Assembly: GCA_045539475.1 (NCBI GenBank)
Contig: JAZQFJ010000045.1
Location: 2,024 to 66,023, forward strand
Length of the DNA stretch: 64,000 nucleotides
Direction of reading: 5' to 3'
Origin: Eubacteriales bacterium
Lineage (GTDB): Bacteria; Bacillota; Clostridia; Oscillospirales; JAAYXM01
Below the pieces are notes generated by a model that was not told where the DNA came from, made no database searches, and worked only from the letters and a program-made list of their open reading frames with translations. Position 1 is the first letter of the stretch; each line of letters opens with the position of its first letter. A program made the position numbers and the translations under genes. Below are positions 14,561-20,637 of this stretch, in pieces.

Positions 14561-14652
14561 GGAGAAGTACTCAAGCTGGTCGAAGAGGCGCCCCTGCTAA
14601 GGGCGTAGGTCGCGAAAGCGGTGCGGGAGTTCGAATCTCCCCTTCTCCGCCA
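14561..14652 (+). tRNA. tRNA-Ser (anticodon GCU), CCA encoded
   Basis: Manual fold: acceptor GGAGAAG/CTTCTCC, anticodon stem CGCCC/GGGCG with loop CTGCTAA, long variable arm, T-arm GGGAG-TTCGAATC-CTCCC, then GCCA. Confidence 0.9.
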
Positions 14653-14657
14653 GAAAA

Positions 14658-14684
14658 AAGACATCCTTTAGGGTGTCTTTTTTC
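14658..14684 (+). terminator. Rho-independent terminator after tRNA-Ser
   Basis: aagacatcc-ttta-gggtgtctt followed by a T-run. Confidence 0.8.
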
Positions 14685-14823
14685 AGTTATATTTGCCTTA
14701 TGGCAAGTTATGAATTGACTTTGTCAACGCTTGTCTTATTAAAGGTAAATATATCATAACAGCAAACGAAGTTTGCTTCATAACTATAAACTCTAAACTT
14801 TCAACTTCCCTCTAAACCATTCA

Positions 14824-15356
14824 TCTCCGCCAGAAAAACCTCATCATTCTCTCATGAAAAAACGGCAAAAACCGGCGAAAATTTGGCAGAAACTTGGCAA
14901 CACAAAAAATAAATTCTGTGTTATAATTTATGGCAATGATGCTTTCGGAGTGAACATCTGTGAATTTGTGCGCGATTCATGAAGGATGCTCCGTGTGCGC
15001 AAAGCGTCAGGTTTGTATTGAAAAAACAATACAAATAAATTATAATAGAAAGGAAAACAACAATGTTAACACAAAATTTATTTAACAAAAAGCCAAAAAC
15101 TTTCATGGACTATGAGCCTGGTAAGTTGCCAAACAACAAAGATTGGGACACGCAGACGAAATCCGAAACCAAAAATTATGCCCCTTTTGCATCAAATGTG
15201 AAAATAGTCGGAAACAATGTAACAAAAAAGGACTACGATGATTTCTTTGAAGGGTTCAATGACCCGTACGGAGAAAAAAGAGAGCAAGAACAACAACGAA
15301 AAGAAAGGCTTGCTAACATTCGTGCAAACGCGGATAAGCAAAACCGGTATTCTCAG
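14824..15356 (+). repeat. Cassette repeat copy 1: tRNA-3'-end-like core, 239-nt leader and first 98 codons
   Basis: Near-identical to 17053..17586. Homology starts exactly at tctccgccagaaaaacc and ends after codon 98. Confidence 0.9.
14919..14927 (+). promoter_or_regulatory. Extended -10 promoter element (TGtTATAAT) in the cassette 1 leader
   Basis: ctgTGtTATAATtt. There is no good -35. Four phased GGC(A/G)(A/G)AA repeats sit upstream. Confidence 0.45.
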
Positions 15357-16208
15357 AGTGCATCCACTTTACAAACAGATGCGTTTGTTAAAGGATTTAA
15401 TAAAGAAAAAACAACCGGCATATTAAATCCACATCCTCCCTATGATACCGACCGTGCTTTTGGATTACTCGGTACAGAAGAGAGCGAATTAAAATCGACG
15501 CTGCAAAAACTCAACGCTTCTCCTGCGATAACAAATGCTATCAATCGCAATCCCAATGCCAAAAGCGAATACAAACCCATCGGCACACATGATCCGAATG
15601 AAGAACCTGTTATAACACAATTGTCAAATGATGAGAAAACTTCGGATTTTACTGAGGTATTAGGTAATACATTAAAAAGATCATTTTTTGAAGCTTTTGC
15701 TCCGGATTATTTAAAACCATCCAGACATACTGCACTATGGTTTGTCGGTGCTGAAACCTACTTGAAGCATAAAGGTTATGATACTTCTGCATGGTTACTA
15801 AAACACTCTTTGCAACCAAATCCCGAAGATGTTTATAGGGATGATAATTCAAGAATTGCACAGCTTATCAAAAATGATCCGGCGTTTGTGAAAGAACTCG
15901 ACATAGCAATTGCCAATAGCGATGGGAAAACATTGGATAAAACAATTTCTGTTTCATTTAAGCAGGGAGATTTATATTATTCCATACATAAAAACGATAT
16001 AAAACTAACCGGATATAAAGATGAAAATGGAAAATGGAAAATTTCCGCAAGGTTGTCTGATGAATATAATTTCTCGGAACTTACTTCATGGATGGATGGT
16101 GAAGATGCTACATTGGGTACATTGGCTAATGATGTAGCGTATTTTTCTGAAAAGATTGGTGCGATAACTCCATACAATATTTATGTCGATTTTAATATTG
16201 AAAGGTAG
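15063..16208 (+). CDS. Cassette 1 large protein (381 aa): conserved 98-aa N-terminus plus a unique C-terminal domain. Polymorphic-toxin-like architecture; function unknown.
   Basis: ORF track, RBS AAAGGA. No signal peptide or TM segment. The first 98 residues differ at 2 positions from 17293..18498; the remainder is unrelated. Confidence 0.6.
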   Translation: MLTQNLFNKKPKTFMDYEPGKLPNNKDWDTQTKSETKNYAPFASNVKIVGNNVTKKDYDDFFEGFNDPYGEKREQEQQRKERLANIRANADKQNRYSQSASTLQTDAFVKGFNKEKTTGILNPHPPYDTDRAFGLLGTEESELKSTLQKLNASPAITNAINRNPNAKSEYKPIGTHDPNEEPVITQLSNDEKTSDFTEVLGNTLKRSFFEAFAPDYLKPSRHTALWFVGAETYLKHKGYDTSAWLLKHSLQPNPEDVYRDDNSRIAQLIKNDPAFVKELDIAIANSDGKTLDKTISVSFKQGDLYYSIHKNDIKLTGYKDENGKWKISARLSDEYNFSELTSWMDGEDATLGTLANDVAYFSEKIGAITPYNIYVDFNIER

Positions 16209-16214
16209 AGTTTT

Positions 16215-16820
16215 ATGAAAAAAATCTTTTTGCTCGTTTTGACACTTTTACTTTTAACATCCTGTAGTAGCAGTGTGGAATTAAATCCCGAATGGTATCC
16301 TCACGGATGGGCAGGTAAAGATACTATTTTTGTCTCCCGACCAAATGGAAAATTCAGTATCGGGCAATATTCTAAAAGTCAAGCTCTCGCTGTAAACACC
16401 GATGACGAAAGGCATGACATCCTTCTTTCTTCAGTAACTGACCATAAACGAATCGAAGATAAAGTGTATGTATATTCCGATGAAGGATATTGCGTTATTG
16501 ATGAAACTGCCAACACCGCAGAAGTTTTGGTTATCGTGGAAGATCAGTATGCGTTATCGGGTACGGATGATCCTGCCGTCACATATCTAAAATCATTTGA
16601 CGATTTTTCAGACAAGGCAAAAAAGATTTTTACAGAGATGGGGCAATACTGGTCTGACAAAGAATATCGTAGATACGGTTCAAATGACAAAATATATCCT
16701 GACGGGACCATTGAATATTCGGATGGTGGTTTATATCAGATGGTAGTAATTTATGTTATACTTCAACTACTTGTTGCTACTGTCCTTGTAATTATTAGAT
16801 TGCGTGCGCGAAAAAAATAA
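16215..16820 (+). CDS. Lipoprotein with C-terminal TM anchor (201 aa). Candidate immunity or partner protein of cassette 1.
   Basis: Lipobox MKKIFLLVLTLLLLTSCSS and C-terminal hydrophobic VVIYVILQLLVATVLVIIRL. Starts 7 nt after the upstream stop. Confidence 0.6.
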   Translation: MKKIFLLVLTLLLLTSCSSSVELNPEWYPHGWAGKDTIFVSRPNGKFSIGQYSKSQALAVNTDDERHDILLSSVTDHKRIEDKVYVYSDEGYCVIDETANTAEVLVIVEDQYALSGTDDPAVTYLKSFDDFSDKAKKIFTEMGQYWSDKEYRRYGSNDKIYPDGTIEYSDGGLYQMVVIYVILQLLVATVLVIIRLRARKK

Positions 16821-16943
16821 TTTCTTTTGCGTTTCGCTTGTAATTTTATCCACCTACGGTTAATTTAGCAGTGAGTGGATTTTTTCTCTAAAGCTACTAT
16901 TTATACAACTTCAGAATATATTGTGCATATGGGTGGCAGAGCT

Positions 16944-16955
16944 CCTTCTCCGCCA
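16944..16955 (+). repeat. Copy of the tRNA-Ser 3' end (ccttctccgcca)
   Basis: A 12/12 match to 14641-14652, closing cassette 1. It sits within a ~36-nt stretch homologous to 18903-18938. Confidence 0.75.
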
Positions 16956-16987
16956 AAAACTGACAAGTTTCAACTTGTCAGTTTTTT
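16955..16987 (+). terminator. Rho-independent terminator directly after the tRNA-end copy
   Basis: ctgacaagt-ttca-acttgtcag followed by a T-run. Confidence 0.75.
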
Positions 16988-17052
16988 ACTTTTCACTATT
17001 CTCTTTTATCTATTCTCTCTTCACAAAAAGTGTATTTACATAAAACTTAAGT

Positions 17053-17586
17053 TCTCCGCCAGAAAAACCTCATCATTCTCTCATGAAAAAACGGCAAAAA
17101 GTTGGCGGAATTTTGGCAGAAACTTGGCAACACAAAAAATAAATTCTGTGTTATAATTTATGGCAATGATGCTTTTGGAGTGAACGTCTGTGAATTTGTG
17201 CGCGATTCATGAAGGATGCTCCGTGTGCGCAAAGTATCAGGTTTGTATTGAAAAAACAATACAAATAAATTATAATAGAAAGGTAAACAACAATGTTAAC
17301 ACAAAATTTATTTAACAAAAAGCCAAAAACTTTTATGGACTATGAGCCTGGTAAGTTGCCAAGCAACAAAGATTGGGACACGCAGACGAAATCCGAAACC
17401 AAAAATTATGCCCCTTTTGCATCAAATGTGAAAATAGTCGGAGACAATGTAACAAAAAAGGACTACGATGATTTCTTTGAAGGGTTCAATGACCCGTACG
17501 GAGAAAAAAGAGAGCAAGAACAGCAACGAAAAGAAAGGCTTGCTAACATTCGTGCAAACGCTGATAAGCAAAACCGGTATTCTCAA
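17053..17586 (+). repeat. Cassette repeat copy 2
   Basis: See 14824..15356. ttctccgccagaaaaa at 17052-17067 matches the tRNA end plus flank for 16 nt. Confidence 0.9.
17149..17157 (+). promoter_or_regulatory. Extended -10 promoter element in the cassette 2 leader
   Basis: Same TGtTATAAT as in cassette 1. Confidence 0.45.
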
Positions 17587-18498
17587 AATAACTCATTTCT
17601 CGAAGGTTTCAATTCTGCTGGAATTACGAAAAAAAGCAGAAAAGGAAACGGCATGTTTCAAAAAACAAAACCGGAGATTACAAAACTTCCCTTTAACCCA
17701 TCACAAGAAGTGAAAATTGAGAAAATGCCAGGCGGTCCAAATAAACCATTATCCTTTATTCAATATGTAAATGGAGAAACAAATGACCCGTGGGGGTCTT
17801 CTCTCGGTGGTGATTTGAAGTCCAACGAAGACAAGGCTCTTTTTCTTGAAGGTTTTGCGGGAGAGTCTAAACAACCACAAAACAAAACCCAAGATAAAGA
17901 TGCCATAGAGTTTGGAGTAGATTCCGAAACCTATAAAATTCTTCAGGATCTCAGTAAACGATGGTATGCAACTTCTGATTCTGCAGAAAAAGACAGACTG
18001 CACGAGGTAGCAGAGAAAGTAAGGATGTATCATCGTCAAGGAACTCCAATTTTTGATAAGCACGATGCGATAATGAATCTTTTGCACGAAAATAAAAAAA
18101 GGGCTCAAGATTATCAGAAAACGATGACAGAAGGTTTTCCAGGCTTTCTTTATCGAATGTCTGACGGAAACTATATGTTAGATTCCTCAACATATCTTAT
18201 CGGAATGGTCGATGAAGGTGAATGGGACTACAAGTACAATAAAGATTGGCAAGTGCCACACGATCACTTCGATGGCAAATATATGGATACCCCCGGAAGT
18301 AATTATAGAAATTGGTTGCCATGGATGTATTTTGATGGTCGATTGATTTCAGCTGATAAACTTGGCAATATGAATATGGCGTATGTTGGCAAAAATATGG
18401 GATTACCCGAGTGGGTGTACAAAAACATTACTACCACAGATAAAGATGATGCGGAGTGGGTTCAGTACGGCATTGACCTTGCAAATTCAGGGAGGTAA
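17293..18498 (+). CDS. Cassette 2 large protein (401 aa): the same 98-aa N-terminus with a different C-terminal domain (possibly toxin-44-like)
   Basis: ORF track. The C-terminal stretch GEWDYKYN...ADKLGNMNMAYVGKNMGLPEW recalls, from memory, the WDYK / GNxxYG pattern of polymorphic toxin type 44 domains. This is unverified. Confidence 0.6.
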   Translation: MLTQNLFNKKPKTFMDYEPGKLPSNKDWDTQTKSETKNYAPFASNVKIVGDNVTKKDYDDFFEGFNDPYGEKREQEQQRKERLANIRANADKQNRYSQNNSFLEGFNSAGITKKSRKGNGMFQKTKPEITKLPFNPSQEVKIEKMPGGPNKPLSFIQYVNGETNDPWGSSLGGDLKSNEDKALFLEGFAGESKQPQNKTQDKDAIEFGVDSETYKILQDLSKRWYATSDSAEKDRLHEVAEKVRMYHRQGTPIFDKHDAIMNLLHENKKRAQDYQKTMTEGFPGFLYRMSDGNYMLDSSTYLIGMVDEGEWDYKYNKDWQVPHDHFDGKYMDTPGSNYRNWLPWMYFDGRLISADKLGNMNMAYVGKNMGLPEWVYKNITTTDKDDAEWVQYGIDLANSGR

Positions 18499-18502
18499 AC
18501 TC

Positions 18503-18823
18503 ATGAAGAAACATTTTCTCGTTAATACATTGTTTTCTCTTGCTTTCATTATTTTCGACCCATTTTTAATCTGGTGCAGTGATTTAGCTGATGTGTATAG
18601 CTTGGGCGCAGAAATGGTTTTAGGAATGTTAATACCTTTTGTTTTCTTCCTTTTTATTCTCTTTGCCATTTTCTCTGTATCACTTTCTTTGTACAAAGCC
18701 ATTGCTACGAAAGACATAAAGCAAACTATACCAACTTTGGTGCTCATTGCATTTGTAACACTGTATATTACTTTGTCAACACAAGACAGTCTATGGGTTC
18801 GTGTCATTGAATATTGTAAATAA
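18503..18823 (+). CDS. Small 3-TM membrane protein (106 aa). Candidate immunity or partner protein of cassette 2.
   Basis: GGAGG RBS then ATG 18503 (MKKHFLVNTLFSLAFIIF...), 4 nt after the upstream stop. The ORF track shows a longer in-frame version starting at 18383. Confidence 0.6.
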   Translation: MKKHFLVNTLFSLAFIIFDPFLIWCSDLADVYSLGAEMVLGMLIPFVFFLFILFAIFSVSLSLYKAIATKDIKQTIPTLVLIAFVTLYITLSTQDSLWVRVIEYCK

Positions 18824-18926
18824 TGCGACGCAAAGTAAAAACAACATACCTAACCACCTCACAAAATCAATAATGAGATGAAATCCCAAAATAGAACAAG
18901 GCATTGTACACACTCGTGGCAACGCT

Positions 18927-18938
18927 CCTTCTCCGCCA
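18927..18938 (+). repeat. Copy of the tRNA-Ser 3' end (ccttctccgcca)
   Basis: A 12/12 match, closing cassette 2. Confidence 0.75.
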
Positions 18939-18940
18939 AC

Positions 18941-18982
18941 AAAAAAGTCACTTTTGTCTATCAAGACAAAGGTGACTTTTTT
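18941..18982 (+). terminator. Rho-independent terminator after the distal tRNA-end copy
   Basis: aaaagtcacttttgtct-atca-agacaaaggtgactttt followed by a T-run. Confidence 0.75.
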
Positions 18983-20562: not shown

Positions 20563-20637
20563 TGGCACCCGCAACAGGAATCGAACCTGTAACTAACCCT
20601 TAGGAGGGGTTTATTATATCCATTTAACTATGCAGGC
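20563..20637 (-). tRNA. tRNA-Arg (anticodon CCU), CCA encoded
   Basis: The reverse complement GCCTGCATAGTTAAATGGATATAATAAACCCCTCCTAAGGGTTAGTTACAGGTTCGATTCCTGTTGCGGGTGCCA folds as a cloverleaf. Anticodon loop CTCCTAA, T-arm ACAGG-TTCGATT-CCTGT. Confidence 0.85.

Follow-up and report, generated by a model that had tools for sequence, protein, structure and literature searches.

Tandem probable toxin-immunity cassettes at a tRNA-Ser gene in an uncultured Oscillospirales bacterium and their possible link to a phage-derived capsid-lysis operon

Tailocins are domesticated phage structural genes that are co-expressed with holin and lysin genes; the particles, set free when a subpopulation of cells lyses, kill competitors. 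In encapsulins, an HK97-fold shell loads cargo enzymes by means of short peptides that reside in disordered tails and are sometimes repeated. The first descriptions of encapsulins treated them as high-molecular-weight bacteriocins (context in PMC11245835). The MuF toxins of temperate phages, which lack a signal peptide and are linked to head morphogenesis, are predicted to travel with capsids (Jamet et al. 2017, PMC5576092). Polymorphic toxin systems carry a constant N-terminal trafficking region, swapped C-terminal toxins and an immunity gene directly 3′ of the toxin gene; their domains are common to RHS, peptidoglycan-binding and MuF-type proteins, and they leave behind orphan toxin and immunity remnants (Zhang, Aravind et al. 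2012, PMC3482391). Here we describe two tandem gene pairs, A1/B1 and A2/B2, in a 64,000-nucleotide stretch of DNA (hereafter the window) from a Eubacteriales bacterium of the Oscillospirales (GenBank assembly GCA_045539475.1, contig JAZQFJ010000045.1, positions 2,024 to 66,023). The explanation that we favor, with a probability of roughly 0.5, is that these pairs are toxin-immunity cassettes integrated at a tRNA-Ser gene, and that their toxins would dock to capsids and be released by lysis.

The open reading frame (ORF) listing of the window contains four ORFs that make up the two pairs:

15063..16208, plus strand: A1, 381 aa; residues 1-194 are a disordered leader and residues 196-381 a folded toxin domain
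16215..16820, plus strand: B1, 201 aa, candidate immunity protein; a lipoprotein with an extracytoplasmic domain and a C-terminal transmembrane (TM) anchor
17293..18498, plus strand: A2, 401 aa; residues 1-198 are a disordered leader with one long helix (70-106) and residues 200-401 the toxin domain
18503..18823, plus strand: B2, 106 aa from MKKHF, candidate immunity protein; a small polytopic membrane protein

The genes of a pair are separated by 6 nt (A1-B1) or 4 nt (A2-B2). Two toxin-like/partner pairs had been named in the original prediction, an earlier annotation of this stretch, and their coordinates and lengths agree with the ORF listing. That B1 is a lipoprotein with a C-terminal TM segment and B2 a 3-TM protein had also been proposed, and hydropathy analysis bears this out: a lipobox (LLTSC) and a TM segment at the C-terminus are present in B1, along with a weak LPAM_1 match, and B2 is nearly all hydrophobic, with 3-4 TM-like windows. 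Neither toxin has a hydrophobic segment (maximum 19-residue Kyte-Doolittle mean of 0.58 for A1 and 0.08 for A2). No match above threshold was obtained for A1, B1, A2 or B2 with Pfam, NCBIfam, PADLOC or PHROGs, and sequence searches of the PDB with full-length and C-terminal domain profiles gave no meaningful match.

Comparison with related loci (designated by L numbers) indicates that A1 and A2 are very probably polymorphic toxins with immunity partners. The leader is joined to at least 10 different, unrelated C-termini, some of which match Peptidase_C70/C39_2, SLT, SLT_2 or PF15535, and across about 25 loci the partner gene that follows the toxin changes with the toxin domain. Both C-terminal domains also serve other delivery systems: that of A1 (approximately residues 222-381) is found behind Phage_Mu_F-like and RHS N-termini in other proteins, and that of A2 (approximately residues 199-401) behind RHS repeats and PG_binding_1. 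A lipoprotein homologous to B1 is encoded by the next gene after two MuF-like A1-type toxins (L055 and L056), and B1 homologs also lie 3′ of A1-type toxin domains in L014 and L015, where the L015 cassette is about 92% identical to that of the window. The A2/B2 pair is kept in L001, and DUF5050 partners are located 3′ of one A2 subfamily. Toxin and partner ORFs are intact in most loci; the toxin of L004 is frameshifted. Variable C-termini, a co-varying downstream partner and domains shared with other delivery systems are the properties by which polymorphic toxins are recognized, and the toxin/immunity diversification that was originally proposed is well supported by this catalog, in which the leader is found with many C-terminal types and not with a single one. 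Orphan remnants are present as well, as described below. Unlike in the described systems, the leader lies outside the catalogued trafficking domains, is disordered and narrowly distributed, and has no adjacent secretion genes.

The majority of partners bear a hydrophobic segment or anchor at the N-terminus, a signal or lipobox, or TM segments. Among them are lipoproteins, small multi-TM proteins, DUF5050 propellers and ankyrin repeats with a TM anchor; a hydrophobic segment is missing from a few of the small ones (L019, L064). Because the partners are predominantly envelope-anchored, their composition points to toxins that would act on the envelope from outside. We also considered that B2 is a holin and that the pairs are lysin-holin modules, and rejected this possibility: the partners differ widely in structure and change along with the toxin domain. 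As a separate observation, the MuF-like A1-type toxin and B1-like partner of L055 (7221-11017) adjoin two serine recombinase genes, which hints that this version of the A1-type toxin resides on a different mobile element.

The constant region of these proteins proved to be unusual. Residues 1-98 of A1 and A2, read from the translations, are identical save for N24S and N51D, as had been reported, and the lack of a signal peptide or TM segment in this region was also correctly noted. It was formerly regarded as an N-terminal domain, a view that we revise: in both AlphaFold2 models approximately 195 residues are predicted to be disordered, apart from one charged helix, and the region is better described as a motif-bearing leader. 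The short recurring motif noticed earlier is real in both proteins (FFEGFN, FVKGFN and FFEAFA in A1; FFEGFN, FLEGFN and FLEGFA in A2), and when the window and 21 related loci were translated in six frames, it turned up almost exclusively in the leader family and one phage-type protein.

Comparison of family members reveals that the leader is a mosaic of short modules. These include MxTQNLFNKxPKTFMDYEPGKxP, which stands alone before an SLT-like domain in the relative P0094, as well as PFASNVKIVGDxVTxKDYDxFFEGFN, DPYGEKREQE..ANIRANADKR and DPFLEGFN. A second leader type (..YYYDFGTGK..) has the FLEGFNDPYGEK part in common with the first, and KIQKLPYxPS repeats occur in other members of the family. 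Many relatives (P0044-P0056, P0095, P0100) carry tandem KIQKLPYRPSxxGEP-type repeats between leader and toxin domain, and residues 131-146 of A2 are a degenerate version, KLPFNPSQEVKIEKMP. The family is tiny, with 18 matches among 1.84 billion representative proteins in an exhaustive profile search, and all genome matches come from metagenome-assembled genomes (MAGs) of uncultured Eubacteriales/Oscillospiraceae. A search of JGI metagenomes with the leader profile yielded one weak locus only. One relative, P0040, bears a Bacteroidales MAG label; it is encoded on a contig of 1,973 nt and may reflect a binning error.

Type VII secretion serves many polymorphic toxins of Gram-positive bacteria (Zhang et al. 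2012, PMC3482391), and the genomes compared here are seen in part only. These facts would accommodate a conventional secretion system located elsewhere, such as a type VII system or an ABC exporter, for which the leader is an unrecognised targeting signal. We consider this explanation very improbable. The region is not an LXG or WXG domain, as had been stated earlier, in that no Pfam or NCBIfam match exceeds threshold; it is predicted to be disordered and not a helical bundle; no type VII or other secretion genes lie near any of the approximately 25 cassettes; and the leader family is far narrower than any known system. The S8-PTS system is defined by a signal peptide, a BetaH domain and an S8 peptidase (PMC9424270), and these components set it apart from the leader toxins.

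The cassette anatomy is directly visible in the window, where the two gene pairs are embedded in a series of repeated features downstream of a tRNA gene:

14561..14652, plus strand: tRNA-Ser(GCU), found by ARAGORN and matching Rfam tRNA with 52.8 bits; its 3′ end, TCTCCGCCA, is the cassette boundary repeat
14653..14684, plus strand: terminator-like hairpin 3′ of tRNA-Ser
14824..15355, plus strand: copy 1 of the duplicated block, with tRNA-3′-end repeat, promoters, 5′ leader element and A1 codons 1-98
16920..16986, plus strand: right end of cassette 1, with a conserved 40-nt end, a tRNA-Ser 3′ remnant (16935-16955) and a terminator hairpin (16955-16986)
17053..17585, plus strand: copy 2 of the duplicated block, with promoter P1 (17102-17157), 5′ leader element (17168-17238), promoter P2 (17248-17276) and A2 codons 1-98
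18903..18982, plus strand: right end of cassette 2, with a conserved 40-nt end, a tRNA-Ser 3′ remnant and a terminator hairpin

The segments 14824-15355 and 17053-17585 share 97.2% identity across 533 nt, a duplication at the DNA level that begins upstream of the genes, about 240 nt 5′ of the start codons. The last nine bases of tRNA-Ser, TCTCCGCCA, occur six times in the window versus 0.44 expected, with five of the six copies within 14644-18938; beyond the tRNA gene they recur at 14824, 16947, 17053 and 18930. Each cassette is composed, in order, of a tRNA-end copy, a promoter region, TTGAAA-17-TATAAT before the ribosome-binding site, the toxin gene, the partner gene, the 40-nt end and a terminator, where the 40-nt end carries a longer tRNA-3′ remnant than the copy at the cassette start. 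The G+C content is 36-37% in the cassette region versus approximately 45% in the flanks, and the cassettes are located between housekeeping genes. Small ORFs of 55-106 aa at 14921-15106, 17151-17318, 18487-18807 (minus strand) and 16875-17156 (plus strand) overlap the conserved 5′ regions, B2 or the spacer between the cassettes; they were rejected as genes because they look like by-products of conserved or A+T-rich DNA.

In L001, a contig from a related MAG, the A2/B2 cassette alone occupies the tRNA-Ser site at which the window has two cassettes. The window differs from L001 by a clean 2.3-kb insertion at the tRNA end that is flanked by a 16-nt repeat (14641-14656 and 16944-16959). Different cassettes are present at the same tRNA-Ser in L002, L004 and L015, and L014 is another tandem array. 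Given the insertion pattern relative to L001 and the varied cassettes carried by relatives at the same tRNA, we conclude that the cassettes are small mobile units accreting at the tRNA. The original prediction identified the two paralogous pairs correctly and overlooked this integration structure. Direct repeats of the tRNA 3′ end on both sides and a presence/absence polymorphism at the site are characteristic of tRNA-linked integrative islets. Like these and other cis-mobilizable elements, the cassettes accrete in tandem at a tRNA 3′ end, carry copies that resemble attachment sites and have no internal integrase or recombinase, since the ORF listing holds no further plausible coding ORF within 14653-18982. 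Unlike them, the elements here measure only about 2.1-2.3 kb each.

At the same tRNA-Ser site, L002 (11742-12085) holds an orphan remnant 3′ of a different, intact toxin-immunity pair. The remnant consists of the last codons of an A2-type toxin and a truncated B2-type gene with an internal deletion. Elsewhere in the window, a tRNA-Arg(CCU) gene (20563-20637, minus strand) lies between an SNF-family transporter gene and an amino-acid permease gene.

Evidence for a phage connection came from two loci, L005 and L006. In both, the gene for a leader-bearing toxin comes immediately after a four-gene series whose products are an acidic protein of 221 aa, a major head protein (phrog_422, E 3e-53), a small protein and a NAGPA/SH3 lysin. 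The acidic protein, hereafter termed scaffold-like, is encoded just 5′ of the major head protein and ends in ..YRDEFLEGFEMYN. Relatives are present in 33 IMG/VR contigs, and the viral locus L040 has the gene order scaffold-like protein, head protein, large terminase, portal; a tblastn search of the GenBank phage collection gave no match. Nearly all of the 24 relatives whose C-termini were read end in D-x-F-L-x-G-F/L. The regular expression D.F[LMIF].G[FLM] has 19 matches in 377 kb of viral contigs, every one of which falls in the scaffold-like protein, and 18 of which are positioned 2-7 residues from its C-terminus. When the toxin segment was aligned with the scaffold C-terminus by hhalign, a probability of 93.5% and an E-value of 2.3e-7 were obtained over 11 columns. 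Two flavours of the motif are found on both sides of this comparison: toxins share FLEGF with the scaffold-like proteins of L005, L006 and L064, and xWxAF is seen in the viral scaffold-like proteins of L031 and L041 as well as in toxins from L017-L021 and L064. By these sequence comparisons, the toxin leader motif D-x-F-[FL]-E-G-F matches the extreme C-terminal motif of the scaffold-like protein.

Another motif-like sequence is present in L015 (12863-15950). There, genes located 3′ of the A1/B1-like cassette encode a LexA-like repressor of phage type, a sigma-region-4-like protein and a protein of 408 aa that has NDYEEFLDGFF at residues 9-19; two polytopic membrane genes lie opposite the gene for the latter. 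The 408-aa protein may be another motif-tagged cargo or toxin.

The motif is common to the scaffold-like proteins of real phages, the toxins are cytoplasmic proteins with no export signal, and the cassettes have an island-like composition and mobility. All of this would also suit an anti-phage decoy or abortive infection system, in which scaffold-mimic motifs bind the phrog_422-type head protein of an infecting phage and thereby either poison capsid assembly or trigger envelope damage and premature lysis. We judge such a role improbable on four grounds. PADLOC returned no match to known defence families; most partners are predicted to be extracytoplasmic, which suits protection from outside over the control of an internal trigger; the same pairs occur behind the RHS and peptidoglycan-binding domains typical of interbacterial toxins; and the chromosome keeps a head protein and a scaffold-like gene of its own.

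These chromosomal capsid genes form an operon that we found in seven loci of related genomes (L005, L006, L064, L065, L066, L067 and L068). The operon encodes the scaffold-like protein, the HK97-type head protein, a small protein (115-147 aa), a Phage_holin_5_2 holin and the NAGPA/SH3 lysin, and usually also a 64-65-aa TM protein; the holin and 64-aa genes were not called by ORF picking in L005 and L006. It adjoins a tRNA-Glu/tRNA-Met pair in L005, L064, L065 and L066, for which the upstream sequence or a tRNA scan was examined, and housekeeping genes lie on either side of it. The operon loci contain no genes for a portal, a terminase or a tail. Toxin-immunity modules are located directly 3′ of the operon in L005, L006, L064 and L068. 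The L065 operon and the L001 cassette share a contig, on which some 25 kb separate them, the L066 operon shares one with L004, and L068 comes from the same MAG as L015. No family match was obtained for the 128-aa acidic protein encoded after the head protein or for the 64-65-aa protein with a C-terminal TM segment encoded after the lysin (unmatched genes at L005 8166-8609, L064 8021-8407, L065 11134-11520 and L066 12617-12811); our guesses are that the former is a head accessory protein and the latter spanin-like. In L064 (10001-16090), an array is inserted between the capsid-lysis operon and ApbE, at a site that is empty in L067. The array contains at least two toxins with a leader (591 and 640 aa), and after each of them comes a small protein that lacks hydrophobic segments.

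The ratio of nonsynonymous to synonymous substitution rates (dN/dS) is 0.06-0.16 for the head protein, the holin, the lysin and two estimable comparisons of the 128-aa protein (dS approximately 0.5-2.8, where estimable), and 0.16-0.39 for the scaffold-like gene. Because dN/dS is about 0.1, we conclude that the operon is maintained and not decaying. This bears on the proposal that the cassettes and operon are inert leftovers, decaying prophage remnants at tRNA genes whose shared promoter and motif reflect nothing but common phage ancestry. Cassettes and operon do adjoin tRNA genes, tRNA-end repeats flank the cassettes, and both a frameshifted toxin (L004) and an orphan fragment (L002) exist. 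The low dN/dS values where these could be estimated, the location of the operon at the same tRNA-Glu/tRNA-Met pair in at least four genomes, the intact state of most toxin and partner ORFs and the conservation of the promoters leave this proposal with only a slight probability.

A second connection between the toxins and the capsid-lysis operon was observed in the DNA preceding the toxin genes, which contains the following elements:

14883..14927, plus strand: promoter P1, TTGGCA-N5-TTGGCA, then ACACAAAAAA, then TGTGTTATAAT
14938..15008 and 17168-17238, plus strand: conserved 5′ element of approximately 70 nt between P1 and P2, with predicted nested stems
15018..15046, plus strand: promoter P2, TTGAAA-17-TATAAT directly 5′ of the ribosome-binding site

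The architecture of P1 is that of the capsid-lysis operon promoter of related genomes, which consists of 3-8 TTGGCA repeats (TTGTCA in L005) at 11-nt spacing followed by an extended -10 element, with ACACAAAAA between the repeats and the extended -10 in L064-L066. This operon-type arrangement is present in both window cassettes (14883-14927 and 17102-17157), and matches to the strict P1 pattern are limited to toxin cassettes (L001, L003, L004, L010) and the capsid operon of L065. We considered whether TTGGCA-N5-TTGGCA is a sigma-54 promoter, for which the GG-N10-GC spacing fits, yet up to eight copies of the element follow one another every 11 nt, and for this reason the repeats look more like activator sites. 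P2 is the top sigma-70-like match of the region (11 of 12 positions) and is kept in all aligned cassettes.

The conserved 5′ element is retained in an alignment of 12 cassettes from different genomic sites. RNAalifold predicts 24 base pairs, three of which exhibit compensatory changes, and the predicted stems are GATGCTTT..AAAGCGTC, GGAGTG..GCTCC and TGAAT..ATTCA. Paired GTGCGC(G/A) boxes within the element change in step between loci. No known RNA family in Rfam matches this region, which could be a leader RNA or an operator.

Toxins and capsid-lysis operon appear to form one regulon, and we consider a functional link between the two to be probable, if not strongly so. A promoter in common with the holin/lysin operon would also be expected of soluble bacteriocins in the style of colicins, which are co-induced with holin and lysin and spill from the cell on lysis. 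By this account the capsid genes are uninvolved in toxin handling, and the leader acts at the target cell in binding or translocation, comparable to the unstructured translocation domains that colicins possess. The toxins do lack signal peptides and have a disordered N-terminus with linear motifs, most partners appear to be envelope-anchored, and there is no portal or tail to deliver capsid cargo. Left unexplained are the purifying selection on the scaffold-like and head-protein genes of the same operon and the presence in toxins of a motif that phages confine to the scaffold-like terminus. On balance, soluble bacteriocins seem to us an unlikely, though serious, alternative to capsid-docked toxins.

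The export route had originally been left open. The evidence presented here points to the phage-derived capsid-lysis operon as that route, and we infer toxicity, immunity, capsid docking and lysis-dependent release as parts of the following scheme. An activator would switch on the capsid-lysis operon together with all toxin cassettes, and the toxins would dock to the head-protein shell through the scaffold-type motif in their leader. Holin and lysin would then burst a fraction of the cells, releasing toxin that is either capsid-bound or free. The released toxin would kill neighbours without the matching immunity protein, and B1 and B2, at the external side of the cell membrane, would shield the producing cell and its kin. 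That the toxins are actually packaged in or on capsids is a more tentative component, which we hold to be somewhat doubtful.

MuF toxins, encapsulins and tailocins are the nearest to this scheme in their working, and none of them brings together a head without a tail, a lysis cassette and toxin cassettes that are dispersed. The A1/B1-type pair also occurs behind MuF-like N-termini; unlike MuF toxins, A1 and A2 have no Phage_Mu_F domain by Pfam, their genes lie outside prophages, and portal, terminase and tail genes are absent from the associated capsid gene set. The system departs from encapsulins in that its shell protein is a major head protein of phage type (phrog_422), paired with a scaffold-like protein of its own and coupled to holin and lysin, and in that toxins with immunity genes would be the cargo; these proteins did not qualify as encapsulins when tested for membership, and the resemblance is functional only. 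Unlike tailocins, a head is retained and not a tail, and killing would come from separate, diversifying enzyme toxins that have immunity proteins. A literature search found no description of the leader, the motif or the capsid-lysis-toxin arrangement.

Structural models offer some indication of what the toxin domains might do. The C-terminal domain of A1, which could not be placed originally, is modeled confidently by AlphaFold2 (pLDDT approximately 90), and a Foldseek search of the PDB matched it to syringacin M (4fzl, E 3e-4, probability 1.0) and to the C-terminal domain of BtpeA (9jdi, E 0.027), a type VI secretion effector of Bacteroides fragilis. Colicin M has the catalytic motif D-x-Y-D, in fuller form D-x-Y-D-x5-H-R. 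In the A1 family, D and Y are invariant in D-x-Y-D/N-F and no H-R follows, and membership in Colicin_M failed at the sequence level. On moderate evidence, we propose that the domain may adopt a colicin-M/syringacin-M-like fold, which would make A1 a candidate hydrolase of lipid II or undecaprenyl-linked precursors. Similarities to colicin M, syringacin M and BtpeA include the structural matches, which are the best found, the D-x-Y and an externally exposed immunity protein; differences include the missing sequence match and H-R, the low structural scores given below and entirely different delivery domains.

The C-terminal domain of A2 is likewise modeled with confidence (pLDDT approximately 90) and is mostly helical; despite this, Foldseek searches of the PDB and BFVD gave no fold match. 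This domain had been suggested to be toxin-44-like, and the searches bear this out in part, with weak matches to Ntox44 and none above the gathering score. The score of A2 against Pfam Ntox44 (PF15607) is 13.2 bits, below the cut-off of 24, and 19 of 37 A2 relatives match Ntox44 at E<=0.1 (best E 7e-4), all below the curated cut-off. Ntox44 is a predicted all-alpha toxin with the motifs DxK, GNxxxG and DxxxD (PMC3482391). The invariant ADKxGNxNMxYVG and DxxD of the A2 family resemble these listed motifs and do not equal them, and a distant relationship between the A2 domain and Ntox44 has weak support from these comparisons.

Several observations weigh against the favored explanation. The window itself has no head-protein, scaffold or lysin homolog, so that for this genome the operon is extrapolated from relatives. 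The motif match spans about 11 residues; it could have arisen by convergence, or the binding target of the motif could differ from the head protein. Gene position is the sole basis for assigning a scaffold role to the phrog_14606 protein, and a profile search of IMG/VR viral contigs did not find the leader family. Since portal and tail genes are lacking, it is not evident how capsids could deliver cargo, and toxins set free by lysis would need no capsid. The envelope location of most partners is predicted from sequence, and all related sequences come from MAGs, in which binning errors are possible. The Foldseek matches of A1 have TM-scores of 0.23-0.31 and a root-mean-square deviation of about 9 Å, the colicin-M link is one Foldseek result, profile and sequence searches found no Pfam Colicin_M or PDB-chain match, and A1 itself has DEYNF and not DEYDF. 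Given the low TM-scores and the lack of sequence-level support, we treat lipid-II hydrolysis as a lead and not as a result.

Polymorphic toxins are classified by their exit route, and the leader described here fits none of the known routes. A possible reading, which we put forward tentatively, is that an uncultured gut clade of Oscillospirales has domesticated a tailless, portal-less phage head and its holin-lysin as a toxin vehicle or release device, with toxin cassettes scattered at tRNA and other sites that would be united by a scaffold-derived peptide address and a common activator-dependent promoter. If the capsid link is true, the leader motif would be the first concrete, testable peptide code that loads bacterial toxins onto a phage-derived head, and a head rather than a tail would have been domesticated for bacterial warfare. 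The system would then represent a new mode of protein-toxin trafficking, a capsid counterpart of tailocins or a weaponised encapsulin, and would provide a simpler model for the long-standing prediction that MuF-type toxins ride in capsids. Motif and shell could also be developed into a pair for programmable protein loading. The cassettes are a source of at least two uncharacterised toxin domains that are predicted to be directed at the envelope, one of which has no relative with a solved fold, along with immunity proteins from abundant but uncultured gut anaerobes.

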